DNA of 64,000 nt from a virus. Its lineage: Duplodnaviria > Caudoviricetes. The position numbers and the translations under genes were made by a program. The notes beneath the pieces are model-generated. The model saw only the letters and a list, made by a program, of their open reading frames with translations, did not search any database and was not told the origin of the DNA. Shown piece after piece: positions 11,654 to 26,558 of the stretch (its first letter is position 1; each line of letters starts with the position of its first letter). The DNA is taken from positions 1 through 64,000 of the IMG/VR virus record IMGVR_UViG_3300021400_001698; one strand, written 5' to 3'.

Positions 11654-11913
11654 CTTATAAGTTCTACTTATAAGTTATACTTATAAGTAAAGGCTATATG
11701 ACTGCGGACGTCGTGAAAACACAGCTGATAGGGCACTGACAGGGATGGAGTAATGATGGTACTATGGTAAAAAATGGCTGCCACATACACGCAAAAAAGT
11801 CAAATTTTATATAAAAAATGCTAACTTTTTACTATAAAAACTTTAAAAATGTTCGGATTTTCTATTAAAAACTTGAAATTTTTTGTCAAATTTTAAATAT
11901 ATATTTATATAAT

Positions 11914-11942
11914 AAAAAGACCGACGTTTAAGTCGGTCTTTT
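11914..11942. terminator. bidirectional terminator ending the minus-strand array
   Basis: AAAAAGACCGAC-GTTTAA-GTCGGTCTTTT. Confidence 0.85.
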
Positions 11943-11971
11943 ACGTATTACTTATAAGTTATACTTATAAG

Positions 11972-12307
11972 TTAAGCTCTTGTGTAGCCCTTGCACTTAC
12001 CCTTAGGACCCTTTACGTCCTGAGATACTGCAGCTCCCTGGCTTACTGCGGTTCTTGCGAGTGCGGAAGCCTTCTGAGGAGAAACCTCAAGTGCAGCTGC
12101 AATGTCAGTTGCGGTAAGCGGCTCATCGGTCAGCATCTCTACGAGCTTCTCTACGAGAGGTGCATTCTCCTGTGCTTTCTTGGAGACCTTCTCACGTCTT
12201 GCGGCGTTAGCTGCGTCCATCTTCTCGATGAGTTCCTGAGCCTTAGCGATAACTTCTTCGTTGATTGTTCCTGCTACGATTGTCTGATAAAATTCTCTCT
12301 GTGTCAT
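11972..12307 (-). CDS. winged-helix DNA-binding protein, paralogue 1
   Basis: MTQREFY start after AGAAGGA; LTATDIAAALEVSPQKASAL HTH; similar to 14782 and 18677 genes. Confidence 0.75.
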   Translation of the reverse strand: MTQREFYQTIVAGTINEEVIAKAQELIEKMDAANAARREKVSKKAQENAPLVEKLVEMLTDEPLTATDIAAALEVSPQKASALARTAVSQGAAVSQDVKGPKGKCKGYTRA

Positions 12308-12537
12308 TTTTAAATCCTTCTTTCTTGCGTAGGCCGCAACCCAGTTACGTTTGTGAATTTTTAATTTTATGAGAGAGGTTTCTTCTCTCACTTTCTATAT
12401 ATATTATAGCAGAATTTTCAGAACTTTTCAAATTTTCAGTTCTTATTTCCGCTCCGAAGATTCGAATAGATTATTTGTTTTCTTCTCTCATCTTCTATAA
12501 ATAGTATATCAAAAATTTGAAGCTTTTTCAAATTTTC

Positions 12538-12699
12538 GCAGCTCCTATAATTTTATATAAAGAAAATTTGACTTTAAAAATCAAATTTTGACGCAGCTCT
12601 CACGGGAAATAATAAAAAAATTTGACAAAAAAAGTCAAATTTCCATAGCAGCTCTATGTGCAGCTCCCAGCTCCGACGCAGCTCCTATAGGCGCAGCTC
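12538..12699. repeat. clustered GCAGCTC repeats
   Basis: GCAGCTC at 12538, 12593, 12648, 12660, 12678, 12693 and CAGCTC at 12668. Confidence 0.75.
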
Positions 12700-12910
12700 C
12701 TGGACGCGGCCACATACACATACGACACCTACGATGGCTACGGCGCTGCACCTGTGCATATTGTATACTGTATATTGTATACACAAATGGAAATTTGACT
12801 TTGTTAAAAATTTGACGAGGGCCGGCCAGTTTATACCCGGGGATCGGCCGGCCCGTGGTTTACATAATATATATATTGTAAACCCGTTGGTTGACATAAA
12901 AAAAGAGAGG

Positions 12911-13273
12911 TTAACCCTCTCTCTTCGCGGATATTTCCGCTTTGCGCTTGCGCACTTCCGCATCGCGCGCCACCTTTTTGGCTTTGCGTTCCGCGTTCTC
13001 GCGCGCCTTTTCCGCTTTGGCTTTGCACGACATCTCGTAGTCCTCCGCCATCGCGTACCCATCATATGGGGTCATACCCTTGTCCGCACCTGTGGGGACT
13101 TTAAAGGTGATAACGAGGAAGTCCTCGTTGCCCTCGCACCCTACTACAGGTAGTGCGATTTCGTTGGATTTCACGCGCAACACCTCATTATCTTGTGCGG
13201 TGAGGAATGCGGAAACGGATTCGAGGAACTGCGCGCGGATAAGTTCGCGCTCGGATTTTCTTGATACTGCCAT
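12911..13273 (-). CDS. hypothetical protein with basic C-terminal helix, paralogue of 17417-17773
   Basis: Shared VLRVKSNEIA.PVVGCEGNEDF.VIT.KVPTGADKGMTPYDGYAMAE. Confidence 0.85.
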   Translation of the reverse strand: MAVSRKSERELIRAQFLESVSAFLTAQDNEVLRVKSNEIALPVVGCEGNEDFLVITFKVPTGADKGMTPYDGYAMAEDYEMSCKAKAEKARENAERKAKKVARDAEVRKRKAEISAKREG

Positions 13274-13618
13274 ATGGAGTACCCCCTTTCTTTTATTTTC
13301 TATAGTAATTATAGCAAAATTTTACGGATTTGTCAAGGGAATTTGAAAAGTATTTTGTATACATTGGCTTTGCAATATAATAATTATGTAAACCTAATAG
13401 ATTGTAAATCGCAATTAGACGATGTGGTGGGCCGGCCCGGGACGATCTGCGGCCCGGCATCAACTATTCCGCATAAATTAATTTTAGGAATAGTTGCGGC
13501 CGAGATAAACCCATTGGATACGCAAGTTTAAACTAACTATTCCTATAAAACTAATTTTCGGAATAGTTGCACCGGATCGACCGGCCGTGAACATATGTTT
13601 GCATAAAAAAAAGACGAC

Positions 13619-13882
13619 TTAATCGTCGTCCTCTTCTTCATCATCACAATCATAAATTTTAAAGTCATTAACCTTAAGGTCATACCAATTAGTTTCAAAA
13701 GTTATTCCTACTTTTTCCCATTTTTCAATAAAGGCGTTGAGTTCTTCTACTGCTTGTTTTTTGAGTTCATATCTACGTCTTTTAAATTCTTCTTCAATAT
13801 CTTTCTGAATTTGCCGAAGGTCTTCTTCTGCAATTTCATTAAGGTTACAAGTTGACAGTTCATCAAATAATTCGTATGCCAT
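13619..13882 (-). CDS. hypothetical acidic protein
   Basis: Start moved to MAYEL after AAGGAG. Confidence 0.75.
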   Translation of the reverse strand: MAYELFDELSTCNLNEIAEEDLRQIQKDIEEEFKRRRYELKKQAVEELNAFIEKWEKVGITFETNWYDLKVNDFKIYDCDDEEEDDD

Positions 13883-13896
13883 TTTTATCTCCTTTC

Positions 13897-14094
13897 TTAA
13901 ATTATACTCCAAACGATTTCCTCAACTTCTGAAATTTCTTTTTTTGTATATTCATTATCATTGATTTCAACCGTTTCTATTTCTTCATTAAGCATTGCGG
14001 TATCAATTTCATCTATTAACTTATGAAATTTTCTAATGATTTCTTTTTCTTCGCTTGTAAATTCAACTCTCATTTGCTTGGTTATAATAGTCAT
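13897..14094 (-). CDS. hypothetical protein
   Basis: AAGGAG RBS. Confidence 0.75.
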   Translation of the reverse strand: MTIITKQMRVEFTSEEKEIIRKFHKLIDEIDTAMLNEEIETVEINDNEYTKKEISEVEEIVWSII

Positions 14095-14111
14095 TTTTTT
14101 ATCTCCTTTCT

Positions 14112-14342
14112 TTACTCTATTATATCACTTGGTTCTTCTATTGTCAAGAGATATTTTTGAAAATCTTCTATTTCATCTGTTTCAATAAGATGTTCAACAT
14201 ATACACGAGTCAATCCCTCATCAGTATAAACATTAACTTGTCCACCGCCCCACTCATATTTATCTTGCATATATTTTATAAAGGCATAACCATCTGTTTC
14301 TTTAGTTGAAAAAGTATATTTATCTGTTTTTATCATTAACAT
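14112..14342 (-). CDS. hypothetical protein
   Basis: AAGGAG RBS, own sigmaA promoter. Confidence 0.75.
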   Translation of the reverse strand: MLMIKTDKYTFSTKETDGYAFIKYMQDKYEWGGGQVNVYTDEGLTRVYVEHLIETDEIEDFQKYLLTIEEPSDIIE

Positions 14343-14396
14343 TTTTTTATCTCCTTTCTTATTACACTAATAGTATAACATATAATGCTTTAAAAG

Positions 14397-14573
14397 TCAA
14401 GAGGAATAATCAATTTTTATTCCAAATTCTTCCATTACTTGAGCAATTATCCAAATTAAATCATTTGGGGTTTCAATTATAAGTTTATTATTTTCTATTG
14501 TAAATTTTTCTTGCCACGCATTCATTACTTGAAAAGTGGTATGAGTTAAATCGTCAGTATATTTAATTGTCAT
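14397..14573 (-). CDS. hypothetical protein (58 aa, MTIKYTDDLT...)
   Basis: AAGGAG RBS and own promoter; below the ORF-track cutoff. Confidence 0.7.
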   Translation of the reverse strand: MTIKYTDDLTHTTFQVMNAWQEKFTIENNKLIIETPNDLIWIIAQVMEEFGIKIDYSS

Positions 14574-14781
14574 TTTTATCTCCTTTCTTATTACATTTAT
14601 ATTATATATTATAGGAACGAATTTGTCAACCCCTAAATTAAAAAATTTTTAACTGTTAAAAAATTCACAAGTGCGCCGGCCCGTAATTTTACTCGTCCGG
14701 CCGCGAACATACGTTCTTTGTTTGTTAATTAACAAACAAAGTAAAAGGAAAGAAAAGGACACCTTGCGGTGTCCCTATCTC

Positions 14782-15099
14782 TTAAAGGGAGTATGCGTTC
14801 TGCTCACCCTTACCCTTTACCTTTACCTTTGTAACCTTTACGCCCTCGATTCTCTTTACAAGACCGCTTACCTTCTGTGTTGAGAATCCCGTTGCGGTTG
14901 CAATCTCACTTGCAAGCATCGGAGTTTCGGTGAGTACATTTGCGATTGCGACTCTCTCGTCTGCGTGCTTGTCAACTCTCTGTTCTGCTCTCTTTGAGTT
15001 GCGTGCGTCAAGTTTCTCGATTGATTCTGTTGCGTGTGCGATAACTTCTGCGTTGATTTCTCCGTTGATAACTGCGTTGAAAAATTCTCTCTGTGTCAT
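14782..15099 (-). CDS. winged-helix DNA-binding protein, paralogue 2
   Basis: MTQREFF start; MLASEIATATGFSTQKVSGL HTH. Confidence 0.75.
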   Translation of the reverse strand: MTQREFFNAVINGEINAEVIAHATESIEKLDARNSKRAEQRVDKHADERVAIANVLTETPMLASEIATATGFSTQKVSGLVKRIEGVKVTKVKVKGKGEQNAYSL

Positions 15100-15240
15100 T
15101 TTAGACTCTCTTTCTCCCATCACTTCGGTAGTGGGCAACCAAGTTTCAATTGAGTTTGGGAGTTACTTTTCTCTCCCTTTTGTACTTTTATTATATCACC
15201 TTTTAAAAGGTTTGTCAAGAGGGTTTTAAAACTTTTTTAA

Positions 15241-15334
15241 AAGTTTTTAGTGGGACTACGTTTCATATCTACTGACCACTATTTCGATATAAAAGGTGAG
15301 GCAAGTTAACGTCTGATGCTCGACCCCTCTTGAC
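15241..15334 (-). ncRNA. promoter-driven small RNA candidate A
   Basis: TTGACA(15364-69)-17-TACAAT(15341-46); about 95 nt without RBS/ORF before the next promoter. Confidence 0.5.
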
Positions 15335-15384
15335 AATTATATTGTATCACCTTTTGGTGAATTTGTCAAGAGGTTTTCTAAAAA

Positions 15385-15468
15385 ATTTTTAGAAGTGAGA
15401 TTCGAACTCATATAATGCCGTTCAGTCAAGTCTTGCTTGCTTACTACACATCGCCATTCCCTCTTGAC
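15385..15468 (-). ncRNA. promoter-driven small RNA candidate B with T-arm
   Basis: TTGACA(15498-503)-17-TACAAT(15475-80); contains TGAG-TTCGAAT-CTCA. Confidence 0.55.
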
Positions 15469-15522
15469 AATTATATTGTATCACATTTCTGTGGTACTGT
15501 CAAGTACTTTTTTAAAAAGTTT

Positions 15523-15609
15523 AGAGAGAATTTGGATTTGAACCATCGGTGGCCACTTTATTGACTCGAACAATCGCCCTACCTTTTAGGGATTCTCTCT
15601 TCACTTTCT
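15523..15609 (-). ncRNA. promoter-driven small RNA candidate C, double-T-arm tRNA mimic
   Basis: TTGACT(15639-44)-17-TATAAT; 9-bp closing stem AGAGAGAAT/ATTCTCTCT enclosing CCCTA/TAGGG hairpin, ATTG-TTCGAGT-CAAT and TGG-TTCAAAT-CCA. Confidence 0.65.
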
Positions 15610-15734
15610 ATATATATTATAATCGAATTTTATAAAAAAGTCAAGATTTATTTTTCAAGTATATTGTATACATTACTTTTATACTTTACTACGCGAAAGC
15701 GCGGCCGGCCAAAGTGAACCGATTTCGGTTCACC

Positions 15735-16115
15735 TTACCAACCGAAGAACTTGGAAAATTCTTCATCGAGAAGTGGAGCAAGTCCAAACATAAACTTTTT
15801 TTGTCCATTCTCTGCAGTGTAACTGACAAGAAACTTCTTGTAGACACACCAATTTATTTCTTGCTCATACTCTGCCCCAAAGTGTTCTTTAAGTTCTGCG
15901 AGGGTGAAACTGTTGCCATAGGTGGGACAATAGTTTGCCCAATCGAGAATTTGATAACACTTGAAATGTGAGGGAGAAAGAGTCTTTTTTGCTACCCACA
16001 TTTTAAGTCTGCGCTCAAGTGGGTCTGTTAGTGTATACCAAAGTTGACAAAAGAAGTTGCGGATTGATTCGATTGTTGATTCGAAAAAAAATTCAAGATT
16101 GTCTATTACTGTCAT
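15735..16115 (-). CDS. hypothetical protein
   Basis: AAGGAG RBS, own promoter. Confidence 0.75.
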   Translation of the reverse strand: MTVIDNLEFFFESTIESIRNFFCQLWYTLTDPLERRLKMWVAKKTLSPSHFKCYQILDWANYCPTYGNSFTLAELKEHFGAEYEQEINWCVYKKFLVSYTAENGQKKFMFGLAPLLDEEFSKFFGW

Positions 16116-16255
16116 TGTATTATCTCCTTTCTTATTACACTATTAGTATACACCATTAAAATGAATTTGTCAACCCCAAATTAAAAAAAATTTTTACTTT
16201 AATACTTTAATTCATTGGAGTGCGGCCGGGCGAGATTGTGAAGTTAATCACAATC

Positions 16256-16456
16256 TCAACCATTCGTATCCCACCATTCTTCAAAATCAGGGTTCAATTC
16301 AACTTCTTCAATATCAAATTCATCATTCTGTAAATATTCTTCGCTGACTTCAAAAAGTTGAATACTTACTTTATTAGCAAACTCTATTGCCTTTTTTCGA
16401 GTGTCAAATAATGCTACACCGCCACCTAAATATTCTCTAAATAAATAATACTTCAT
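16256..16456 (-). CDS. hypothetical protein
   Basis: AAGGAG RBS, own promoter and terminator. Confidence 0.75.
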   Translation of the reverse strand: MKYYLFREYLGGGVALFDTRKKAIEFANKVSIQLFEVSEEYLQNDEFDIEEVELNPDFEEWWDTNG

Positions 16457-16598
16457 TTTTTATCTCCTTTCGTTTTCTGTATCTAAAGTATATCATATTA
16501 TAACCTATTTGTCAACCCCTAATTTAAAAGTTAAATAATTAACAATTACGCCCGGCCGCGCATAAATATACATCGCAATGTATAAACAAAGATGTGTC

Positions 16599-17243
16599 TT
16601 ACCACATCTTTGTTTCAAAGTTAGCACCACCTAACTCCCTACACTTCATTAAAATTTTGTATTCAATTTCACAATCTGCAAGTGCCGTGTGTTCCTCTGT
16701 GAAATTTTTATCAAAGAAATACTGTGCGACAATTTCTGCGGTGTATCTGTTTGCGTTTCTCTGTGTGAGATAGTTATTTACTTCACAAAATTTTCTGTAT
16801 TCACTTTCACACTTTAAAGTGTAACGAGAGAGAGCAAGTATATCGTGAAATTCTGTACCATAGGGGAAGAAATATCTATATTTAGATTTCGTTAAATATC
16901 TTTCGGTTGTTGCGGTTGAGATATAATCAAATCTGCAATTATATGCAAAAACTTTTGTTATCTCATTTTCTTTCATTATATGGCGAAGAGTCCATTTTAT
17001 ATTTTTAAAACTTGTAAGTGTCCTTTCGCCTTTCTTTATCTGTTCCCAATAGGTGGGAATTTTTTCTTTAAAATATGCGCTTTCCATTAACTCTTTATTA
17101 CAGAATACGTCTGCATTTACAAAAGAATGTTTTGAGTAAATATTGCCCTCAAAATCTGCAACGATAAAACCTATATCGTAACAAATAGGGTCATCAAGTG
17201 AATTTGTGGTTTCGGTATCTAATACTATAATTTTTTCTGTCAT
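16599..17243 (-). CDS. DEDDh 3'-5' exonuclease (DnaQ-like)
   Basis: LDTETT ExoI, YNCRFD ExoII, HTALAD ExoIII motifs. Confidence 0.88.
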   Translation of the reverse strand: MTEKIIVLDTETTNSLDDPICYDIGFIVADFEGNIYSKHSFVNADVFCNKELMESAYFKEKIPTYWEQIKKGERTLTSFKNIKWTLRHIMKENEITKVFAYNCRFDYISTATTERYLTKSKYRYFFPYGTEFHDILALSRYTLKCESEYRKFCEVNNYLTQRNANRYTAEIVAQYFFDKNFTEEHTALADCEIEYKILMKCRELGGANFETKMW

Positions 17244-17416
17244 CGTGTTTTGTCCTTTCGTTTTTCTGTAATTATATTATATCACATATATAGGAAAAGT
17301 CAAGCAAAATTTCGAAAAAATTTTTATACAATTTTAGGAATAATTATACGACGCGCCGGCCTTGTTTGTTAATTAACTAACAATTTTCCGAAATAAAAAA
17401 GTGAGTCATTTCTGAC

Positions 17417-17773
17417 TCACTCTCCCTTTTCTGCAATTTCCTTTTTCTTTCTGCGAATTTCCTCATCACGCTTGATTTTTTTTGCTTTCTTTTCGGCACT
17501 TGCCTTTGCCTTTTCTTCTTTCTCTTTCAGTTTCATTTCATATTCTTCTGCCATCGCATAACCATCGTAAGGAGTCATACCCTTATCTGCACCCGTTGGC
17601 ACCTTTACAGTAATTACGATAAAATCTTCGTTACCTTCACAACCCACAACGGGAAATGCAATCTCATTTGATTTGACCCTTAAAACTTCTTCAGTTTCGG
17701 CAAGTGTTTCGATTAACTTTGTTAAATAATTTTCTTTCAGTAATTCTCTTTCAACTTTTCTTGATACTCCCAT
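17417..17773 (-). CDS. hypothetical protein, paralogue of 12911-13273
   Basis: Long identical peptide stretches. Confidence 0.85.
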   Translation of the reverse strand: MGVSRKVERELLKENYLTKLIETLAETEEVLRVKSNEIAFPVVGCEGNEDFIVITVKVPTGADKGMTPYDGYAMAEEYEMKLKEKEEKAKASAEKKAKKIKRDEEIRRKKKEIAEKGE

Positions 17774-17995
17774 TCTGTGTATCTCCTTTCTTTATCTTAT
17801 ACCTTATTATAACATTTCAATCAATTTTTGTCAAGAGAAAATTCAAAACTTTTTTGGATTTTTAAATTTTCTTTTTTCATTTTCTATATATATTATAACA
17901 AAAATTTTAAAATTTGTCAAGTTTTAATTTGTAAGAATACTGTATACATTTCTTTAATTGTTTAACACTTTAATTCGCTAAAGTGCGCCCGGCCG

Positions 17996-18009
17996 CGAAC
18001 ATATGTTCG
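17996..18009. promoter_or_regulatory. Gram-positive SOS (LexA) box; one of nine copies at 13.6-25.0 kb
   Basis: CGAACATATGTTCG matches CGAAC-N4-GTTCG. Confidence 0.75.
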
Positions 18010-18039
18010 TATAAAAAAAGTTGTGAAATAAATCACAAC

Positions 18040-18210
18040 TTAATCTCCTATTATTTCGGGACTTAAATCCACCCAATCATTATAAATTTCAAGAATTTCA
18101 ACCTCATCTTTATCAAAAGTGCCACCACAACACCCACATATAATAGTATTATCGTCAGTCAGAATACCACCAAAAACTGCTTCAACATCTCTAAACTTAA
18201 TCTGCTTCAT
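18040..18210 (-). CDS. small zinc-binding protein (ICGCCGG)
   Basis: Start MKQIKF after AAGGAG. Confidence 0.7.
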   Translation of the reverse strand: MKQIKFRDVEAVFGGILTDDNTIICGCCGGTFDKDEVEILEIYNDWVDLSPEIIGD

Positions 18211-18226
18211 TTTTAAATCTCCTTTC

Positions 18227-18484
18227 TTATGAGTGAATGCCACCCAAAACCTTAATTAAAATTAAACCTGTTGTAATTCCTAACATACAGAAATCCTTTA
18301 CCTTATCTGCCATTGGTCTTTTTAATACAAAACATCTTACAACTGCAAGTACATTTGCACTAAAGTATATAAACTGTCCTACAAAAAAGTTACTACCAAC
18401 TGTACATTGTGCAGTAATTAACAAAGTCAAAACTAAATAGTTCGCAAGTTCAAAACCCTTTTCTATCTTTTCTCTAACTGTCAT
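18227..18484 (-). CDS. small membrane protein (3 TM)
   Basis: Hydrophobic segments; GAGGT RBS; own promoter. Confidence 0.75.
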   Translation of the reverse strand: MTVREKIEKGFELANYLVLTLLITAQCTVGSNFFVGQFIYFSANVLAVVRCFVLKRPMADKVKDFCMLGITTGLILIKVLGGIHS

Positions 18485-18676
18485 TCACTTTACCTCTCTT
18501 TCTTATCTCTTTGTACCTTAATTATACTCTATAAATCCTATCTTGTCAACCCCTTTTTTAAAAAAATATTTTAACTTTTACAATTTAGTGTGCGAAAGTG
18601 TGCCGGCCGCGGTCGTTTGTTAATTAACAAACAAAGTACCCTAAAAAGAAAAGGGTACTTGCGTACCCTTTATGCC

Positions 18677-19018
18677 CTATGCGAGAGTATATGCAACCCT
18701 CTTGCCAACCTTAGGCAACTTCACTTCGGAAGCCACTACCTTTCCTTCCTTTGCTAACTGTCCACAAAGGGAAGATGCCTTTGCGGTAGTGATACCAACC
18801 GCTTCACCTATCTCCTTTGCGATGTGAGTTTCTCCGTTGGCGAGGAACTCGAGGATAGAAGCCTTAATAGGCTCGTTGGCGAGTGCTACCTTTGAGGGTC
18901 TTGAAGCCCTATTAGCATTACGAGTGTCGAGCTTTGTGATTTCTTCCGTAGCCTTTGCTACTACCTCTTCGGTGATTTCTCCATTAACGATTGCGGTGTA
19001 GAATTCTCTGTAAGTCAT
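18677..19018 (-). CDS. winged-helix DNA-binding protein, paralogue 3
   Basis: MTYREFY; IAKEIGEAVGITTAKASSL HTH. Confidence 0.78.
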   Translation of the reverse strand: MTYREFYTAIVNGEITEEVVAKATEEITKLDTRNANRASRPSKVALANEPIKASILEFLANGETHIAKEIGEAVGITTAKASSLCGQLAKEGKVVASEVKLPKVGKRVAYTLA

Positions 19019-19399
19019 TTTAAGTTCCTTTCTTGCGTAGGTCGCAACCCTCTTTTACTTTTGGGAGTTTCTGTCTCCCTCTCTCATCTTACATTTAGAT
19101 TATAGCATATTTTTTTAGGTTTGTCAAGAGTTTTTTTAAACTTTTTTTAATTTTTTTCGTCTTTGGAAGTGGTCATTTCCATCTGCCAAAACCGAATTTT
19201 TATTTTCTTGACCTTTTGTAATTATATTATATATGAATTTTATTAATTTGTCAACTACTTTTTTCAATGTATATTGTATACATTACTTCAATGCTTTAAC
19301 GTGTGAAAGCGCGGGCCGGCCGAAGCGAACATATGTTCTTTTTAATCTAATAAAAAAATTGGCTTCTGTTCCCAAGTGCCAATTAACTCGGAGTCTTGC

Positions 19400-19618
19400 T
19401 CACCAGTGAGGGCGAACTCCCCAATAATCCTTGTGGAGGTCAGAGTAAATCTGCCAGTCCATAGGGTCATCGGTTTCCTCTGCAATCTTCAGAGCCTTCT
19501 GAAGGTTTTCCCAACATCTACGCTCTTCAGCGATTTCTTCGAAATCTGCGAGGATTCTGTTGCCAGTCTTTTCAGAGAGCCAACATTCGCACCCTGCGAT
19601 TATGTACTTGTAAAGCAC
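19400..19618 (-). CDS. hypothetical protein (GTG start)
   Basis: GGAGG RBS before GTG 19618; the ORF-track N-terminus overlaps the promoter. Confidence 0.65.
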   Translation of the reverse strand: MLYKYIIAGCECWLSEKTGNRILADFEEIAEERRCWENLQKALKIAEETDDPMDWQIYSDLHKDYWGVRPHW

Positions 19619-19835
19619 TAGGTAAGTCCTCCTTTCCTTGTTCTTTTGTACTTTTATTATAGCACCCTTTAGGTAGTTTGTCAACCCATTTTAAAAAATT
19701 TTTTTAACTTTTTTCTTTAACGCTTTAACGTACTAAAGTGCGGCCGGCTTACTTTAATACTTTAATTCGTTAAAGTCTACCCGGCCGCGATTGTTAAGTT
19801 ATTAACTTAACAAATTGAGTTCAATAAAAAAGGGA

Positions 19836-20282
19836 TTAATTTAATCCCTTTAATATCTCGATGATATTGTCAACATCATATGCAGTACCTATCCAATTTT
19901 CTCTGTTTGCGATTTCGTCATCGAATAAAATTCCATTCGGGAAATTTACCACCATTTCCTTCGGTGTGCCATATTCGGTGATGATAATTTCGTCAAACTT
20001 TACACTTGCAAGGTGAACGGTTAACCATTCCATTTTTGCATTTATAACCTTTGCGTTGTATTCGGTTGTACCATTCTTTGCTAACCACGATACAATGCCG
20101 ATTATATAACCATTTGCCTGAAGTCTGTTGAGAAGTCTTGCAAGTACATTTAACTTTACAAGAGGGGTTGCGTCTGTGTAAGGGCTTGCGTCCTCGTTCT
20201 GTAACTTTGTTAACCAATTATTTACACCGTAGAGGTTGGCGAGTGTGCCGTCCATATCGAAATATATTGCCTTGTTCATCAT
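19836..20282 (-). CDS. HAD-family phosphatase, 5'(3')-deoxyribonucleotidase-like, paralogue 1
   Basis: YFDMDGT motif I, LFDD motif IV. Confidence 0.82.
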   Translation of the reverse strand: MMNKAIYFDMDGTLANLYGVNNWLTKLQNEDASPYTDATPLVKLNVLARLLNRLQANGYIIGIVSWLAKNGTTEYNAKVINAKMEWLTVHLASVKFDEIIITEYGTPKEMVVNFPNGILFDDEIANRENWIGTAYDVDNIIEILKGLN

Positions 20283-20442
20283 TTTATTTACCTCTCTTTC
20301 TCTATATATAATATAGCATACTTTAAGAAATTTGTCAACCCCTGGGAAAAATTTTTTTCTATTGTATATCGGTATTAGACGATTTGGGTGGCCGGCCGCG
20401 AACATATGTTCATATAAAAAAATGTGCATAATCGCACATTTT

Positions 20443-20991
20443 TTACCAATCCTTTAAACATTCTTTTACGTGTTTGTCAAGTAAATATTCTGTGTAAAAT
20501 CTGTTTACTTGTGGTTCTGTAGTAATGGTTGCGTTCCAAAACTTAACTTGAATATGTTCCCCATTTACTACCACATCTCCGCACTCTGTACACTTTGCGG
20601 ACTTGTTTTCGTTCTGTGTTCCGTTGGTGTACTGTGCAAACATATCTTCGAAAAGGTTTCCACGGTTTCCCTTGTATCCATTTTCTCTCTGTTCTGTATA
20701 GAGTCTTTCAAACTCTTTTACTGAACACATCGGAATTATTTCCCTTGCGTATTCCTTAAGGATTGCAAATACTTCCATTTTGTTGTTCATTCTTACTCCC
20801 CAAACTGAACCGTGGCTTGCAGAATTTCTTTCGCAATAGGTTACAAGAGGAAGAACCTCATCGGCATTTTCTACGATAACGGCCTTGACCATTTTCTCGT
20901 CACGGATTGCAAATGCATATGTATTGGTATATTCAACTTTTGCCAGTCTTTCAAGAATTGTCATTTTTATTTCTTCGTTTGAGTTTCTCAT
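20443..20991 (-). CDS. PD-(D/E)XK-like protein, paralogue of 24144-24623
   Basis: NRGNLFE...GDVVVNGEHIQVKFWNATITTE. Confidence 0.6.
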   Translation of the reverse strand: MRNSNEEIKMTILERLAKVEYTNTYAFAIRDEKMVKAVIVENADEVLPLVTYCERNSASHGSVWGVRMNNKMEVFAILKEYAREIIPMCSVKEFERLYTEQRENGYKGNRGNLFEDMFAQYTNGTQNENKSAKCTECGDVVVNGEHIQVKFWNATITTEPQVNRFYTEYLLDKHVKECLKDW

Positions 20992-21259
20992 TTTTGTGTT
21001 CCTTTCTTTTTCTTTCCCTTCTGTGATTATATAATAACATATAACTGGCAAAATGTCAACCCCTAAATGAAAAAAGTTTAAAAAATTTTTTGGCACACTT
21101 CTTGCAAGGGGTGGCGGCCGGCCGAAACTTTAACGCTTTAGTGCGCGAAAGCGTCGATTGCACCCTCGGTGTTTGCGTCCTTGGTGTCCACTCCACTTCC
21201 CTTTCTCTATATATATAATAACATAGAAAAAGGACTTTGTCAAGTCCTTTTTTAAAAAT

Positions 21260-21475
21260 TTAGTGATGTAAAATTACTTCATATGAACACGTATTCGGTT
21301 CATTCAAATATACTTCTTCGAAACAACAAGGACAAAAGCACCCACGACTAATAAATTTACCATATGTTTTAAACATTTCTTCTTCTTCTGCGATAAAAAC
21401 ACATTCACACTTTTTACACATAATTCTATAAGAAGTTTTGACACTTAAATCTCTACCCATTGTAATTATCTTCAT
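21260..21475 (-). CDS. small zinc-ribbon protein
   Basis: CKKC...CPCC; AAGGAG RBS. Confidence 0.75.
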   Translation of the reverse strand: MKIITMGRDLSVKTSYRIMCKKCECVFIAEEEEMFKTYGKFISRGCFCPCCFEEVYLNEPNTCSYEVILHH

Positions 21476-21493
21476 TTTTTTTATCTCCTTTCT

Positions 21494-21655
21494 TTATGTA
21501 AATATCATTATTATTACTGATAATATTATGTAACAAATACTTATTATTATTCGTATAATGTAAGATATATTGATTTCTTGATATATACTTAATGTTACAT
21601 ACCACCAAGACAATATTGCTATACCTAAAATTGCCATTATTGATAAAATTATCAT
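21494..21655 (-). CDS. small membrane protein (53 aa)
   Basis: Start MIILS after GAGGT; the longer ORF-track version runs through promoter and repeats. Confidence 0.65.
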   Translation of the reverse strand: MIILSIMAILGIAILSWWYVTLSIYQEINISYIIRIIISICYIILSVIIMIFT

Positions 21656-21881
21656 TTTATTTACCTCTCTTTCTTTATCTATAATATACCATATATGAAG
21701 AGGAAAGTCAACCCCTAAATTAAAATTTTTTCGTACAAGTGCGCGCGGTCGTCCGTGTCCGTGCAATGACTCTGTTAAATCCTTAACAAGGACGGCCGGC
21801 CGCGAACATATGTTCGTTTTGTAATTAGAAAAAAGGCACAAGCAAGACTTGTGCCAATTTTCAAAGAAAAGGAGGTAAACA

Positions 21882-22031
21882 CTATAAAAACAATTTAAAG
21901 AGATTCCAATTTGATAAAACCGTTTCACTTTCAAAGTCTAAATTCTGTGAAGTGATTTCAATATAGGAAACTATGCCCCAAAGAATAAGTAATACCGATA
22001 TAACTATTATAATATTTCTAAAAATCTTCAT
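21882..22031 (-). CDS. small membrane protein (49 aa, MKIFRNIII...)
   Basis: AAAGGA RBS; hydrophobic N-terminal helix. Confidence 0.6.
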   Translation of the reverse strand: MKIFRNIIIVISVLLILWGIVSYIEITSQNLDFESETVLSNWNLFKLFL

Positions 22032-22063
22032 TTTCTTAATTCCTTTCTTTATCTCTTCTGTGA

Positions 22064-22255
22064 TTATATAATACCATACTTTTTAAAGTCTGTCAAGTCT
22101 TTTTCAAACTTTTGTTCAACTTTTTTTCTATTATATAACCGATTTCCTTCACAATAAGGACAAGACCCGTGATTTCTGCAAGTGTAATCAATTGCCTTTG
22201 ACCCGTAAAATGGTTTTCTATGTTCTTTTCCATTCTTAATCGCTTTATCTAACAT
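22064..22255 (-). CDS. small Cys/His phage protein (CRNHGSCPYC)
   Basis: Start MLDKAI after AAGGAG; own promoter. Confidence 0.72.
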   Translation of the reverse strand: MLDKAIKNGKEHRKPFYGSKAIDYTCRNHGSCPYCEGNRLYNRKKVEQKFEKDLTDFKKYGII

Positions 22256-22383
22256 TTTTCTTATCTCCTTTTCTATATATATTATACTATAACCAAAACG
22301 GGAAGTCAAGTGTTAATTTTTTAACAAGGGGTCGGCCGGCTGTGAATTTTTATACATTTCTATGTATATTTAAAAGGCACTTC

Positions 22384-22824
22384 TTAAAGTGCCTTTAAAA
22401 CTGTAAGGATTTCGGTTTCGTCAAAAGCCTTGCCTATCCAATTTTCTCTATTCTGAATTTCATCATCGAATAAAATTCCGTTTGGGAAGTTCACAACTTC
22501 TTCTTTTGGTGTTCCGTAAGGAACGATATTTATTTCATCGAATTTCACGCTTGCAAGGTGGGAATTTAACCAATTTGTCTTTGCCTTTGCAACTTCTATA
22601 TCATAATTTTCGGAAGAATTTTTTGCTAACCAACTAACAATGCCGATGACCCAACCCTTTTTCTGTAAATTATTGAGAAGTCTTGCAAGTACATTCAGTT
22701 TAAGGAGAGGAAGTGCCTCGATGTATAAACTTGCATCTTCATTTATAATTTTTTCTAACCAATTTTCAACTCCATAAAGGTTTGCGATTGTTCCGTCCAT
22801 ATCGAAGTAAATTGCCTTTGTCAT
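22384..22824 (-). CDS. HAD-family phosphatase, 5'(3')-deoxyribonucleotidase-like, paralogue 2
   Basis: YFDMDGT and LFDD; highly similar to 19836-20282. Confidence 0.82.
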   Translation of the reverse strand: MTKAIYFDMDGTIANLYGVENWLEKIINEDASLYIEALPLLKLNVLARLLNNLQKKGWVIGIVSWLAKNSSENYDIEVAKAKTNWLNSHLASVKFDEINIVPYGTPKEEVVNFPNGILFDDEIQNRENWIGKAFDETEILTVLKAL

Positions 22825-23117
22825 TTTATTTTCTCCTTTTCTCTTTTTCTATAATTATTATATACTTATTTTGAAAATTTGTCAATGGTTTTAGGAAAAT
22901 TTTTTATACAATTTTTTGAATAAAAATTGAAGAGGAAAACTTTTACGAAATAAACTTCAGAACTTTAATGTGTGAAAGCGCGGGCCGGCCAAAATTTTAA
23001 GACTTTAATTTACTAAACTTTAGAACTTTAACGCGTGAAATTACGGCCGGCCGCACCTATAAGTTTGTTAATTAACAAACAAGTTGATCGAGTCAAAAGA
23101 AAAACACCTTTCGGTGT

Positions 23118-23402
23118 TTAATCTTCTTTATGGAAGTAATCGCGTGTAATCCTTTCGAAAACTTCATCTGCGGTCATCCAACCCTTGACGTCATCGACCT
23201 CTTTTTCTTCTTCTGTAAGAAGTCCCTTTATCTCAAGGAGTCCGTCCTGATGTCCGTATGATACGTCATTGCAAATGACTGAACAAATGCAATTGTCGTG
23301 ATTGGGATATTCAAGATGTAAACCGCCAAGATGTTCTGTCATCTCGTAAGGAACGAGAACGCAAGCAAGCATGTATCCGAGTTTATTCATTTCTGTAAAC
23401 AT
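23118..23402 (-). CDS. hypothetical protein
   Basis: GAGGT RBS; SYGHQDGLLEI motif. Confidence 0.75.
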   Translation of the reverse strand: MFTEMNKLGYMLACVLVPYEMTEHLGGLHLEYPNHDNCICSVICNDVSYGHQDGLLEIKGLLTEEEKEVDDVKGWMTADEVFERITRDYFHKED

Positions 23403-23470
23403 TGTGTGTACCTCTCTTTCATTTACTATAGTAATTATACTCCTATATAATTACTTTGTCAATACCCTTT

Positions 23471-23641
23471 TTATTCTTCTTCTTCTCCATATCCAACACC
23501 GAGAAGTATATCATACATCATCTGCTTTAACTCTCTATCCGTCATCGTCATATCCTCTGCGTAACGACCGATTAAAAGAGTATATCTGTCCTCAAACCCT
23601 CTTACATATGCAACCTTTAAAACCATATCTGTTCTTGTCAT
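23471..23641 (-). CDS. hypothetical protein (56 aa)
   Basis: GGAGG RBS, own promoter. Confidence 0.7.
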   Translation of the reverse strand: MTRTDMVLKVAYVRGFEDRYTLLIGRYAEDMTMTDRELKQMMYDILLGVGYGEEEE

Positions 23642-23862
23642 TTCTGTGTTCCTCCTTTGTCTTTATCTATATAAAGTATAACGCATATTACTCAATTTGT
23701 CAAGTAGGAAATTAAAAGTTAAATTATTAACAATCGCGGTCGGCCGAATATATTGACTTTAGTATATTAAAGTTTAGAACTTCAACGCATTAAAGCATGG
23801 CCGGCCGCGACGTGTGGAACATATGTTCGTTTTGCTTATAAAAGAAAAGGACTCTTTGAGTC

Positions 23863-24042
23863 CTATATAAGTTTTTCTTCTTTTATTCTTTTATCTCCAA
23901 GGCTTGTTATTTCCTCGACTGTTAATCCCGCCGCATAACAACGACACATCCAATCAGACATCTTTATTTCTTCATCTCTACCAAGAGTCCAATCAATATA
24001 CATTTCAATAATTTCTTCTTTGATATTTTTAAGGGCTGTCAT
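23863..24042 (-). CDS. hypothetical protein (59 aa)
   Basis: GAGGT RBS, own promoter and terminator. Confidence 0.7.
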   Translation of the reverse strand: MTALKNIKEEIIEMYIDWTLGRDEEIKMSDWMCRCYAAGLTVEEITSLGDKRIKEEKLI

Positions 24043-24143
24043 TTTCTTTACCTCTTTTCTTTTCTTATCTTAGCTTCTATCTTATTATAACATATAGCTC
24101 GTAGCTTGTCAACTACTTTCTTAACCCTACCGAGGGAAGAGGC

Positions 24144-24623
24144 TTACGCCTCTCCCATCAGCTTGTACATCTGACTCTCGGTCATGTATGTGGCTCCTTC
24201 AAACTTGAGCTGATAGCCGATACCGTCAACCTCAAGGTCGGGGCCTTCCCAGAACGGCAGATTATCCTTTTCCCAGGTCTGACCGTTTAACTCTGTTACG
24301 AACTTCTCGAATACTTCACCACGATTATAAATACAAGTGGCTACTGTTTCATCAAAGAACTCAACGGAGCAGATAGCCTGTGAATCTTTTAACAGGCTCA
24401 TCTTTTGTGCTACGGTCGGCTTAAATCTCAGGCTGTAGCCCTTGCCACGGCTGGCTTTATCTAACTTCATAAACTGAGCTATATCGTCCGAGCCGATAAC
24501 GACAGCATACACAACGCCTTTGAATGTAAAGCCTAAAATGTAGTTGTGGCAGGCATTTCTTGTTTGATAAATCTTTGACATTGTCTTAAGTAAATCTGCG
24601 TTCATAGTGTACCTCACTTTCAT
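24144..24623 (-). CDS. PD-(D/E)XK-like protein, paralogue of 20443-20991
   Basis: NRGEVFE...PDLEVDGIGYQLKFEGATYMTE. Confidence 0.6.
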   Translation of the reverse strand: MKVRYTMNADLLKTMSKIYQTRNACHNYILGFTFKGVVYAVVIGSDDIAQFMKLDKASRGKGYSLRFKPTVAQKMSLLKDSQAICSVEFFDETVATCIYNRGEVFEKFVTELNGQTWEKDNLPFWEGPDLEVDGIGYQLKFEGATYMTESQMYKLMGEA

Positions 24624-25115
24624 ACTGTAAAGTATTAAATCCTTTTCAAATTCTACCTAATTATAACGCTTTTAAAGGTATATGTCAATAGAAATCAGCA
24701 AAGTTTTTTTATTCAGTTTTATGTATATTTATACAGTCATATATATATTGTATTTATATACATACAATGTATATTTTATTGTTAGCACTCAAACATATGT
24801 TCGTTTTTATTATACTGTATATTGTATACACGATTTTATTATACTAAAGTTTTAATGCGTTAAACTTTAGAACTTCACCGTACTAAAGTGAGACGGCCTG
24901 TCCCAAGAGGGTATATCCCCGGGTGGGTTACGCGAGGTAGATTGTGAAATTTTTAACTTATCACTTATCGAATGACACTCCTTTTTTTCGAAAAAATCTC
25001 GAACATATGTTCGTAGAACATACATTTACTTGTATGGGCCGGGGATGTTTATGGGTTAACGCGTTAATACTTTAACGTGTGAAAGTATCCTCTGGAAAAT
25101 AATCTCCATGAAATC

Positions 25116-25164
25116 AAAAATCAAAACCTAAAACCCAAAAACTAAAATTCAAAACCCAAAATTT
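25116..25164 (+). repeat. seven tandem 7-bp A-tract repeats abutting a promoter
   Basis: AAAAATC AAAACCT AAAACCC AAAAACT AAAATTC AAAACCC AAAATTT. Confidence 0.75.
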
Positions 25165-25191
25165 GACAAACTCCCAAACCCATGATATAAT
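25163..25191 (+). promoter_or_regulatory. sigmaA promoter with extended -10
   Basis: TTGACA-17-TATAAT with TG at -15/-14. Confidence 0.88.
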
Positions 25192-25244
25192 ATAAGTAGA
25201 GTAAAAAATTAGAGGAGGACCAACACTTACGTTGGCTTATATAA

Positions 25245-26558
25245 ATGCAAAATAGACTTAAATTAGATTTTAGTTTGGAAACTGCAGAAGAGCGTAAAAA
25301 CTTCCTCTCAACCTATCTCGTCCAATTTGACAATTTAACCCAAACCGAACTTGCGACTCTTGCAGACTATCTCCTTTGGGGTAAAGACGAAAGCGGCGAA
25401 GCCATAGGTAAAGGAACAGGTTTAAGAACTCGTTGGACCAAGGACGACGAATTCGAATCACTTGACTCTCTTCTTGAAAATCCAAACTTCAACGACCTAC
25501 AAATTCACACATTAAGTGAGACGGTCCCACTTAAACGTCCTAAAGCGACTTTTTCTCGGTCAGCCGCACTTAAAAACTGTCCTGAAGACCTTCGTAAAAC
25601 CTTCGAAGAACTTTGGCATCAAATTGACTCAACCGACTTACTCATTACCTACTATGAGTTATTAAACGGAAAAAGAACTCTCGCTCCAAGACAAGAACTT
25701 ATCGACCGTTTCACATTAGACGAAAGAAACAATTTACTTGCGGCGGCTCAAAAACTTACTCAATTTACCTATCTCAAAAAAAGACACGAATTAATTGATT
25801 TACGACGTCAGCAATTTACGCTAAAAGACTCATACAATGCGCCAATTAACACATTAAACCATTTACCACAACCGCAACTTATCAATACAATAACTTTTGA
25901 CGTTGACATTCCCGTTTATCCGCTTGGTTTGCGCGAAGGTCAACTCGCACAATTAATTTTTGACAAAAATCTTGACCCCGCGCACCTCAACGACGAACAA
26001 CTCAACCAACTTAACACCTTCTTAATTGAGAAACGAAAACCTAAACCTGCTCGAAACTTCGATTTCCGCGAACTTGAACCCGTTTATCAGTTATTCCTTT
26101 TTCATGAAGACCTAACCGATCGAATTGAGGAAGCCAAGGAAGCCCATTTAGTTGAATCAAACCTCGATAAGCTTATAGACACGCTAAACTTTTATATCGA
26201 CCTTACCGACCTAACCGAGGTTCAACAAGTTATCTTACAAAAGAAAATTAACCACGAAAAAAATTCTGATATAGCGGGGTATGTAAATAGGACCTACGGT
26301 AAGTCCTATACGGCAAACTATATAAGTACAATTTTTAGACAAAAAATTATACCGAAAATTAACGAGTCGGCAAAGTTCCACTTAGAAACCGTAAGCAACT
26401 ATTTCTTCCCTGAGAATTTTAAGAAATGTAGTGAATGCGGGCGGATTTTACTTCTCCATGAGAATAATTGGGTTAGAAAGGCAAGAAGCAAAGATGGATT
26501 TCAAAGTCGATGCAAGAGATGTGAGAAGAAGATAAGGGAGGAGAAGAAAAAGAAATGA
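25245..26558 (+). CDS. putative transcription regulator (sigma70 region-4-like HTH plus C-terminal Zn finger)
   Basis: LTEVQQVIL...KNSDIA...YISTIF HTH-like segment; CSEC...CKRC. Confidence 0.55.
   Translation: MQNRLKLDFSLETAEERKNFLSTYLVQFDNLTQTELATLADYLLWGKDESGEAIGKGTGLRTRWTKDDEFESLDSLLENPNFNDLQIHTLSETVPLKRPKATFSRSAALKNCPEDLRKTFEELWHQIDSTDLLITYYELLNGKRTLAPRQELIDRFTLDERNNLLAAAQKLTQFTYLKKRHELIDLRRQQFTLKDSYNAPINTLNHLPQPQLINTITFDVDIPVYPLGLREGQLAQLIFDKNLDPAHLNDEQLNQLNTFLIEKRKPKPARNFDFRELEPVYQLFLFHEDLTDRIEEAKEAHLVESNLDKLIDTLNFYIDLTDLTEVQQVILQKKINHEKNSDIAGYVNRTYGKSYTANYISTIFRQKIIPKINESAKFHLETVSNYFFPENFKKCSECGRILLLHENNWVRKARSKDGFQSRCKRCEKKIREEKKKK

Follow-up and report, generated by a model that had tools for sequence, protein, structure and literature searches.

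What can predicted binding sites for a bacterial repressor be doing in a phage genome when they lie outside every promoter? The question is raised by the IMG/VR record IMGVR_UViG_3300021400_001698, of which we analysed positions 1 to 64,000 (this whole stretch of 64,000 nucleotides is hereafter called the window), and by nine short dyads of its early region that resemble the SOS boxes recognised by LexA in Gram-positive bacteria. A sequence-only reading of the window had noticed these dyads and had proposed that they serve either for a distal sensing of the SOS state or as a decoy array for LexA. Our analysis indicates that the nine sites are selected, near-consensus operator sequences for the LexA of the host, predicted to be docking sites for this repressor and not classical operators; as to what they do, the two readings that still lead are a distal sensing of the SOS state and a decoy array for LexA.

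The existence of the nine sites was confirmed by pattern search and by shuffling. The GAACATATGTTC-type sites start at positions 13589, 14705, 17997, 19327, 20400, 21804, 23817, 24791 and 25001, as had been announced, and allowing at most one mismatch these nine stand against 0.26 expected, a number reached in none of 100 shuffles. This 35-fold enrichment is limited to the early region. The exact 12-mer GAACATATGTTC is present at six of the nine sites. A perfect match to the 14-mer CGAACATATGTTCG is found at three sites (17996, 21803 and 25000), where the sequence-only reading had counted "two or more"; four sites have one mismatch and two have two, and the other 50 kb of the window contain no match to CGAACATATGTTCG with fewer than three mismatches. 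Of the eight occurrences of the core GAAC-N4-GTTC, seven fall between 14.7 and 25.0 kb.

The 14-mer CGAACATATGTTCG is the published LexA consensus of Bacillus subtilis (PMC8270828 Table 1, citing Au et al. 2005), and the motif obtained for Clostridium thermocellum LexA by DNA affinity purification sequencing is reported to match the B. subtilis motif (PMC8457756). The window sites show the 14-bp dyad CGAAC-N4-GTTCG with an AT-rich centre that defines a Cheo box, and they share with the Firmicute Cheo boxes (those of B. subtilis LexA/DinR, C. difficile and C. thermocellum) the identical dyad CGAACATATGTTCG, with intolerant cores and tolerant centre and outer bases. This tolerance was quantified on 101 imperfect sites with one or two mismatches, whose 147 mismatches are distributed per position as 25.5 for the outer bases, 16.8 for the centre and 3.6 for the GAAC/GTTC cores; the same pattern is found in the LexA-bound sites of phage SPbeta. 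The phage boxes are nearer to the consensus than the boxes upstream of lexA in a candidate host family, and also than those of SPbeta.

Selection on the boxes was then considered against simple repeat expansion, which the sequence-only reading had named among the alternatives that could overturn its interpretation. The 145 distinct sites collected from relatives of the phage give the consensus aaaCGAACATATGTTCGt, with a T-run 12-20 nt upstream and G/C-rich DNA downstream, and outside the box the information content drops to nearly zero over no more than 5 nt in both directions. An orthologous alignment, tried as a measure of selection, failed since the spacers cannot be aligned between relatives, and the boxes are thus maintained amid fully diverged sequence. 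Because the information disappears in the flanks and the spacers do not align, the conservation of the box is not that of a copied repeat, and repeat expansion, which does not account for a conservation confined to the box, was rejected.

The placement of the boxes is as characteristic as their sequence. The early region is an array of minus-strand cassettes (11972-24690) made up of about 30 near-consensus TTGACA-17-TATAAT promoters, short open reading frames and intrinsic terminators, with boxes in the spacers. Read on the minus strand, a spacer presents in order a terminator hairpin with its T-run, a few A/T bases, CGAACATATGTTCG, a GGCCGG(CC) block, at least one CACTTTA-N6-TAAAGTG, sometimes TGTATACA or TTGTTAA-N4-TTAACA, an A/T tract and the -35 element. 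A minus-strand terminator hairpin with T-run precedes seven of the nine boxes, and the distance to the next minus-strand -35 is 61, 72, 75, 76, 92, 102 or 113 bp for seven of them, which bears out the earlier statement that the boxes lie past terminators and beyond the range of simple occlusion. The exceptions in distance are box 13589 (252 bp) and box 25001 (313 bp to the minus-strand -35 and 150 bp to the plus-strand -35 at 25163). Cellular LexA operators are expected to overlap or adjoin a promoter; here none of the nine boxes overlaps a -35 or a -10, and for this reason a function as classical operators is excluded for them. Within the early region polymerase leaves unswept only the stretch that separates a terminator from the promoter following it, and a decoy or an insulator would need to be located there.

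Going through the boxes one after the other, TGAACATATGTTTG (13588-13601, two mismatches) follows the minus-strand terminator 13627-13613, and CGAACATACGTTCT (14704-14717, two mismatches) adjoins the palindrome TTTGTTAATTAACAAA, follows the minus-strand terminator 14776-14755 and has its next -35 at 14629. The perfect CGAACATATGTTCG at 17996-18009 lies a few nt past the T-run of the minus-strand terminator 18041-18018, with the next -35 at 17920, and on its promoter side come a GGCCGG block and a perfect HisR-like box (17967-17984). With one mismatch each, CGAACATATGTTCT (19326-19339) has its next -35 at 19254 and CGAACATATGTTCA (20399-20412) lies just past the hairpin and T-run which end the open reading frame 20443-20991, with the next -35 at 20338. 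A second perfect CGAACATATGTTCG (21803-21816) follows the minus-strand terminator 21855-21835, has its next -35 at 21711 and is followed on its promoter side by GGCCGGCC and a Rex-like site (21772-21789), while GGAACATATGTTCG (23816-23829, one mismatch) follows the minus-strand terminator 23864-23848 and has its next -35 at 23703. The last two boxes, 24791 and 25001, have no terminator and lie between two divergent promoters, the first early promoter on the minus strand (24688-24660) and a plus-strand promoter (25163-25191) that serves the gene of a sigma-like protein (25245-26558): CAAACATATGTTCG (24790-24803, one mismatch) is found 102 bp upstream of the former, and the third perfect CGAACATATGTTCG (25000-25013), in this divergent control region, 150 bp upstream of the latter. 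Abutting box 24790, the stretch TTAGCACTC (24780-24790) equals a half-site of the CIRCE (controlling inverted repeat of chaperone expression) operator of HrcA; the second half-site is absent and the likeness is probably a coincidence.

The LexA-type boxes share the spacers with motifs of two other host repressors. The pattern ACTTTA-N6-TAAAGT, which equals the Firmicute HisR consensus cacTTTAnnnnnnTAAAgtg (PMC9413887), gives 37 matches in the window against 11.7 expected; 25 of the 37 lie between 15683 and 25086, and those at 17967, 19759 and 23756 are perfect. The pattern TTGTTAA-N4-TTAACAA, which is the Rex consensus used for Clostridia (PMC8457756), gives with at most two mismatches 15 matches against 2.0 expected, 14 of them between 12801 and 23733 (for example at 16528, 21772, 22310 and 23716), some being offset matches on the spacer-less palindrome TTGTTAATTAACAA. 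Three independent matches to published operators of host repressors, all within one set of spacers, could hardly arise by chance, and they argue that the LexA-type boxes target the LexA of the host or, at the least, mimic its code. The GC blocks GGCCGG/CCGGCC complete the picture, with 34 of the 37 window copies between 12820 and 25042, usually following a LexA-type box towards the promoter at a distance of 0-12 nt; they also adjoin the TTGTTAATTAACAA palindrome, and in relatives CCCGGGC-type blocks replace them. The palindrome TTTGTTAATTAACAAA was seen at 14717-14740, 17361-17383, 18612-18634 and 23060-23082; as it lacks a central spacer it is not a canonical Rex site, and its slot is that of the LexA-type box, past the terminator and ahead of the GC block.

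The exact published consensus, the LexA-like mismatch pattern, the other host-repressor motifs of the spacers and the failure to find a LexA homologue in the phages (five complete relatives have neither a LexA_DNA_bind nor a Peptidase_S24 domain) together argue well for the Gram-positive LexA boxes which the sequence-only reading had seen. Its interpretation as a whole held in part: the LexA identification and the placement stand, and it had missed the HisR-like and Rex-like motifs with the GC block, the family-wide nature of the trait, the virulent look of the phages and the existence of a box-free relative.

The boxes belong to a family of phages and not to a single genome. The window is part of a large novel, uncultured phage of about 130 kb with a Gram-positive host and a GC content of 34%. 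In a near-identity search, the stretch 13000-26000 had no DNA match among 50,697 phage records, which marks the phage as novel. The window encodes a large terminase, a portal and the sigma-like protein; the portal is less than 28% identical to the portals of isolated phages, and the PolC-like polymerase is 37% identical to SPbeta YorL. Relatives were collected in IMG/VR through exact-pattern and terminase searches. The exact search with box and GC flank gave three viral contigs, with 12-13 boxes on each of two of them, and the terminase search gave 50 loci, about 80% identical, which come from many metagenomes and have genomes of 115-137 kb. The family is one of large gut and rumen phages. Arrays of boxes were seen at about 30 loci of relatives, and four of the five complete genomes possess them, a conservation among relatives that is expected of host-regulator sites on lytic phages of the phi29 Spo0A type; within the loci the boxes lie almost exclusively ahead of the terminase, in the early region. 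Across 215 kb of early DNA, taken without redundancy, we counted 31, 51 and 43 distinct sites at 0, 1 and 2 mismatches (125 in total), against 0, 0 and 0 in the 217 kb of remaining DNA of the same loci. The four complete genomes contain 11-21 sites, clustered within one stretch of about 8-16 kb, and 80 of 89 good boxes are intergenic in an early region that is 47% coding. More distant relatives, with terminases 44-64% identical, have no LexA-box arrays.

Comparison of the spacers in these relatives showed that the box starts 10-14 nt past the T-run in 45 of about 98 scorable cases and that its distance to the -35 is broad (40-120 bp). The order of the cassettes is heavily shuffled, the commonest family having 20 different downstream neighbours in 26 junctions, and the presence of a box is not significantly linked to the gene family flanking it (p 0.16 upstream, 0.07 downstream), for which reason the number of sites seems to matter more than the gene served. 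Such shuffling is what one would expect if the boxes had no dedicated binder and, with the GC block, formed a recombination linker between cassettes, comparable to the promoter/stem-loop cassettes of T4 type, or else a small DNA or RNA hairpin, the box being able to form one of 5 bp. We consider this explanation very improbable: a 14-bp linker needs neither the LexA consensus nor a LexA-like mismatch spectrum, the unconserved flanks offer little homology for recombination, and the hairpin finds no backing in compensatory changes, none of which were seen, nor in an Rfam match.

No tyrosine or serine recombinase was found in the five complete relatives, and the phage family therefore looks virulent and a role of the boxes in prophage induction is unlikely. 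Persistence by other modes may be possible, and the relative L002 carries within an early spacer a consensus parS-like site, GTTTCACGTGAAACA (L002:4660-4680). This virulent look separates the present phages from the known cases of phages using LexA. GIL01 and CTXphi also have host LexA boxes in the phage genome (PMC4551915, PMC6182141), but in GIL01 the boxes are inside promoters P1 and P3, a co-factor, gp7, takes part and lysogeny is maintained, whereas here the boxes are outside promoters and far more numerous. A lysogeny switch of GIL01 type, which supposes a temperate phage with boxes in its lytic promoters, does not agree with boxes outside promoters and five complete relatives without integrase. 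SPbeta, a distant relative as judged from its DNA polymerase (37% identical), has about ten LexA boxes, some of them bound by LexA in vitro; unlike the window boxes, these deviate by 3-5 mismatches and are found close to specific promoters, and the phage that carries them is temperate. The cellular Cheo boxes likewise overlap the promoters of SOS genes and usually deviate from the consensus, whereas the phage boxes are consensus-grade and lie in untranscribed spacers. As judged from sequence, what sets the arrays apart from the known promoter operators of GIL01, CTXphi and phi29 is thus that the predicted operators are consensus-grade, off-promoter, combined with other repressor motifs and family-wide in apparently virulent phages.

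For the function of the boxes we tentatively give a slight preference to a repressor sink, in which LexA would be captured by the near-consensus sites of the spacers. Stoichiometric capture of LexA would be the likeliest effect of the boxes: the sites of a replicating phage would exceed those of the host in number and strip the host operators of LexA, with the same effect for HisR and Rex, so that host repair, recombination, histidine and redox genes would be derepressed without any phage protein. As all of these regulators are repressors, their removal would raise repair and recombination, histidine supply and redox capacity. The boxes have the properties of a decoy array, namely many predicted high-affinity sites that are unattached to a regulated promoter. 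Their number is also suitable, with 9-21 consensus-grade sites per genome of about 130 kb, compared with 16 LexA sites in C. difficile (PMC4234289) and 41 non-coding LexA sites in C. thermocellum (PMC8457756). Since a phage genome carries about one clostridial regulon's worth of sites, its replication must sequester LexA if LexA binds; one replicating genome would then offer more high-affinity sites than the whole host regulon, and some sequestration would be hard to avoid. What the sequences themselves show is the sites, the selection on them, their placement, their spread through the family and the lack of a LexA homologue in the phages; from these we infer the binding of LexA, its titration and a benefit to the phage.

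Known decoy or titration loci, such as the repeated decoys of yeast (PMC3322331) and chromosomal DnaA titration in E. coli (PMC12371093), also have many sites off promoters and a capture set by copy number; titration by the phage boxes, for its part, is proposed from sequence. Our search of the literature gave no natural phage example of a decoy and no description of such arrays. A wider version of the sink, which we regard as possible and rather speculative, would be a multi-repressor sponge of virulent phages, with spacers tiled with LexA, HisR and Rex operators and a takeover of the host by DNA sequence alone. If true, a LexA sink would be a natural transcription-factor decoy, a manipulation of the host by sequence and not by protein, invisible to ordinary gene annotation.

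Several points weigh against the capture of host LexA as the purpose of the boxes. The boxes keep close to the terminator, mostly 10-14 nt past its T-run, and this hints at a cis role that is needless for a pure sink. A lytic phage might itself suffer from an induced SOS response, for instance if prophages or defence genes were awakened. As to the host, the metagenome-assembled genome (MAG) bins are in conflict (Acutalibacteraceae, Clostridia, Erysipelotrichaceae, Methanobrevibacter, Melainabacteria), and the search for CRISPR (clustered regularly interspaced short palindromic repeats) spacers gave no match, the short spacer-like matches in 401 genomes being outside CRISPR arrays. A relative, G003/L048, whose terminase is 83% identical, has no box and almost no GC block, and because so close a relative does without them, the boxes are dispensable and some of the spacer palindromes may serve phage proteins. 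Finally, a family of 154-aa proteins is encoded in the window and in four of four box-bearing complete relatives and is absent from the box-free G003. With regard to the host, the Rex variant and the MAG bins would point to Clostridia; the MAG that bins a contig 83% identical belongs to a family in which 24 of 31 genomes have LexA and 4 of 12 lexA loci have GAAC-N4-GTTY boxes upstream.

The terminator spacing leads to the second reading, that of a host-state sensor or cis element, which we hold to be possible and less probable than the sink. Here LexA, HisR and Rex would bind and adjust early transcription to the damage of the DNA, to redox conditions and to the histidine supply, either as a roadblock sharpening the upstream termination, as an insulator between cassettes or by a distant action on the next promoter, and the outcome would be a deferment of the lytic cycle comparable to the Spo0A control of phi29. 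In the 45 boxes, of about 98 scorable ones, that start 10-14 nt past the T-run, bound LexA would stand at the leading edge of a polymerase paused on the U-tract, although this fixed spacing could also be inherited through a terminator-plus-box unit. Several -35 elements have a Rex-like site 0-25 nt upstream, and two relatives have tandem clusters of three to four LexA-type boxes just upstream of a promoter (L003 7915-8040, spaced by 33-47 bp and directly upstream of promoter-like sequence, and L002 2568-2621, spaced by 14-28 bp). A precedent exists in phi29 and Nf, which are likewise lytic-class phages that keep sites for a global regulator of the host, Spo0A, and tie the infection to the host state (PMC2731898). 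The Spo0A boxes, however, overlap early promoters and origins and repress directly; the LexA-type boxes do neither and are combined with several repressor motifs. A cis action also meets the facts that no box overlaps a -35 or -10, that each cassette has its own consensus promoter, so that read-through adds little, that the boxes are not linked to particular gene families and that no mechanism is known by which LexA would act from 60-115 bp upstream.

The box-free relative leads to a further reading, in which a dimeric protein encoded by the phage and mimicking, or converged on, the specificity of LexA would bind the boxes as phage operators, for example for early shut-off. The spacers of G003 (L048:1-7400; also L036 and L058) carry between terminator and promoter the palindrome TTAGACGT-TAA-ACGTCTAA with a half-site TTAGACGTCAAAA, and G003/L048 has about 35 copies of TTAGACGT/ACGTCTAA, for which a literature search for a known operator returned primer matches only. 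L036 is mostly of G003 type and has one spacer with, in order, a terminator, a LexA box, a GC block, the G003 palindrome and a -35, from which it follows that the box is proximal to the terminator and the other palindromes to the promoter. The early regions of L052, L045 and L055 carry still other palindromes: CGTACGT-N3-ACGTACG in 7 copies, GTTAGTT-N2-AACTAAC in 11 copies and, in one distant relative, TGTTAT-ATAACA in 20 copies. The exchange of the whole motif set in G003, together with the CGTACGT-N3-ACGTACG and GTTAGTT-N2-AACTAAC arrays elsewhere, fits a coevolution of operator and binder, and a precedent is provided by GIL01, whose protein gp6 is homologous to LexA and binds DNA at a promoter (PMC6182141).

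Two candidates for such a binder were considered. The first belongs to the 154-aa family and is the product of the first early gene, a protein of 153 aa encoded on the minus strand at 24144-24605, with a paralogue at 20443-20991 on the same strand. Among the early regions sampled, 15 of 20 box-rich loci and 1 of 6 box-poor loci encode a member of this family, counts that favour a phage binder and that take no account of shared ancestry. Its model is of high confidence (AlphaFold predicted local distance difference test score of 93), gave no match with Foldseek and reached at best a Z of 2.9 with VIA-align, so that the predicted fold is not recognisably DNA-binding and the protein was set aside as a binder. 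It might instead stabilise LexA on the boxes, by analogy with gp7 in GIL01. By eye, its motifs NxGExFE ... GD..V.G..YQxK are reminiscent of PD-(D/E)xK nucleases, a likeness that is unproven. The second candidate was one of three paralogous winged-helix proteins of about 110 aa, encoded on the minus strand at 11972-12391, 14782-15138 and 18677-19018. Their N-terminal helix pair MTQREF...KLDxRN is conserved, one to three copies exist in nearly every relative, and the family comprises two subfamilies with different recognition helices and weak matches of MarR/CodY type. These found no support as the binder either, as the recognition helix does not differ between box-bearing and box-free phages and does not track the motif. 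Considering also that the five complete genomes are without a LexA-like domain and that an exact LexA consensus accompanied by HisR-type and Rex-type matches would be very unlikely for unrelated phage operators, we judge a phage-encoded binder to be unlikely, below the cis element and above the linker or hairpin, with the repressor sink keeping the first place.

A few observations concern the window outside the boxes. Rfam gave no family within 11800-25400 and no parS site is present in the window. At its start, an array of 12 tRNA genes extends over positions 22-2192 and includes a tRNA-Ile(tat).

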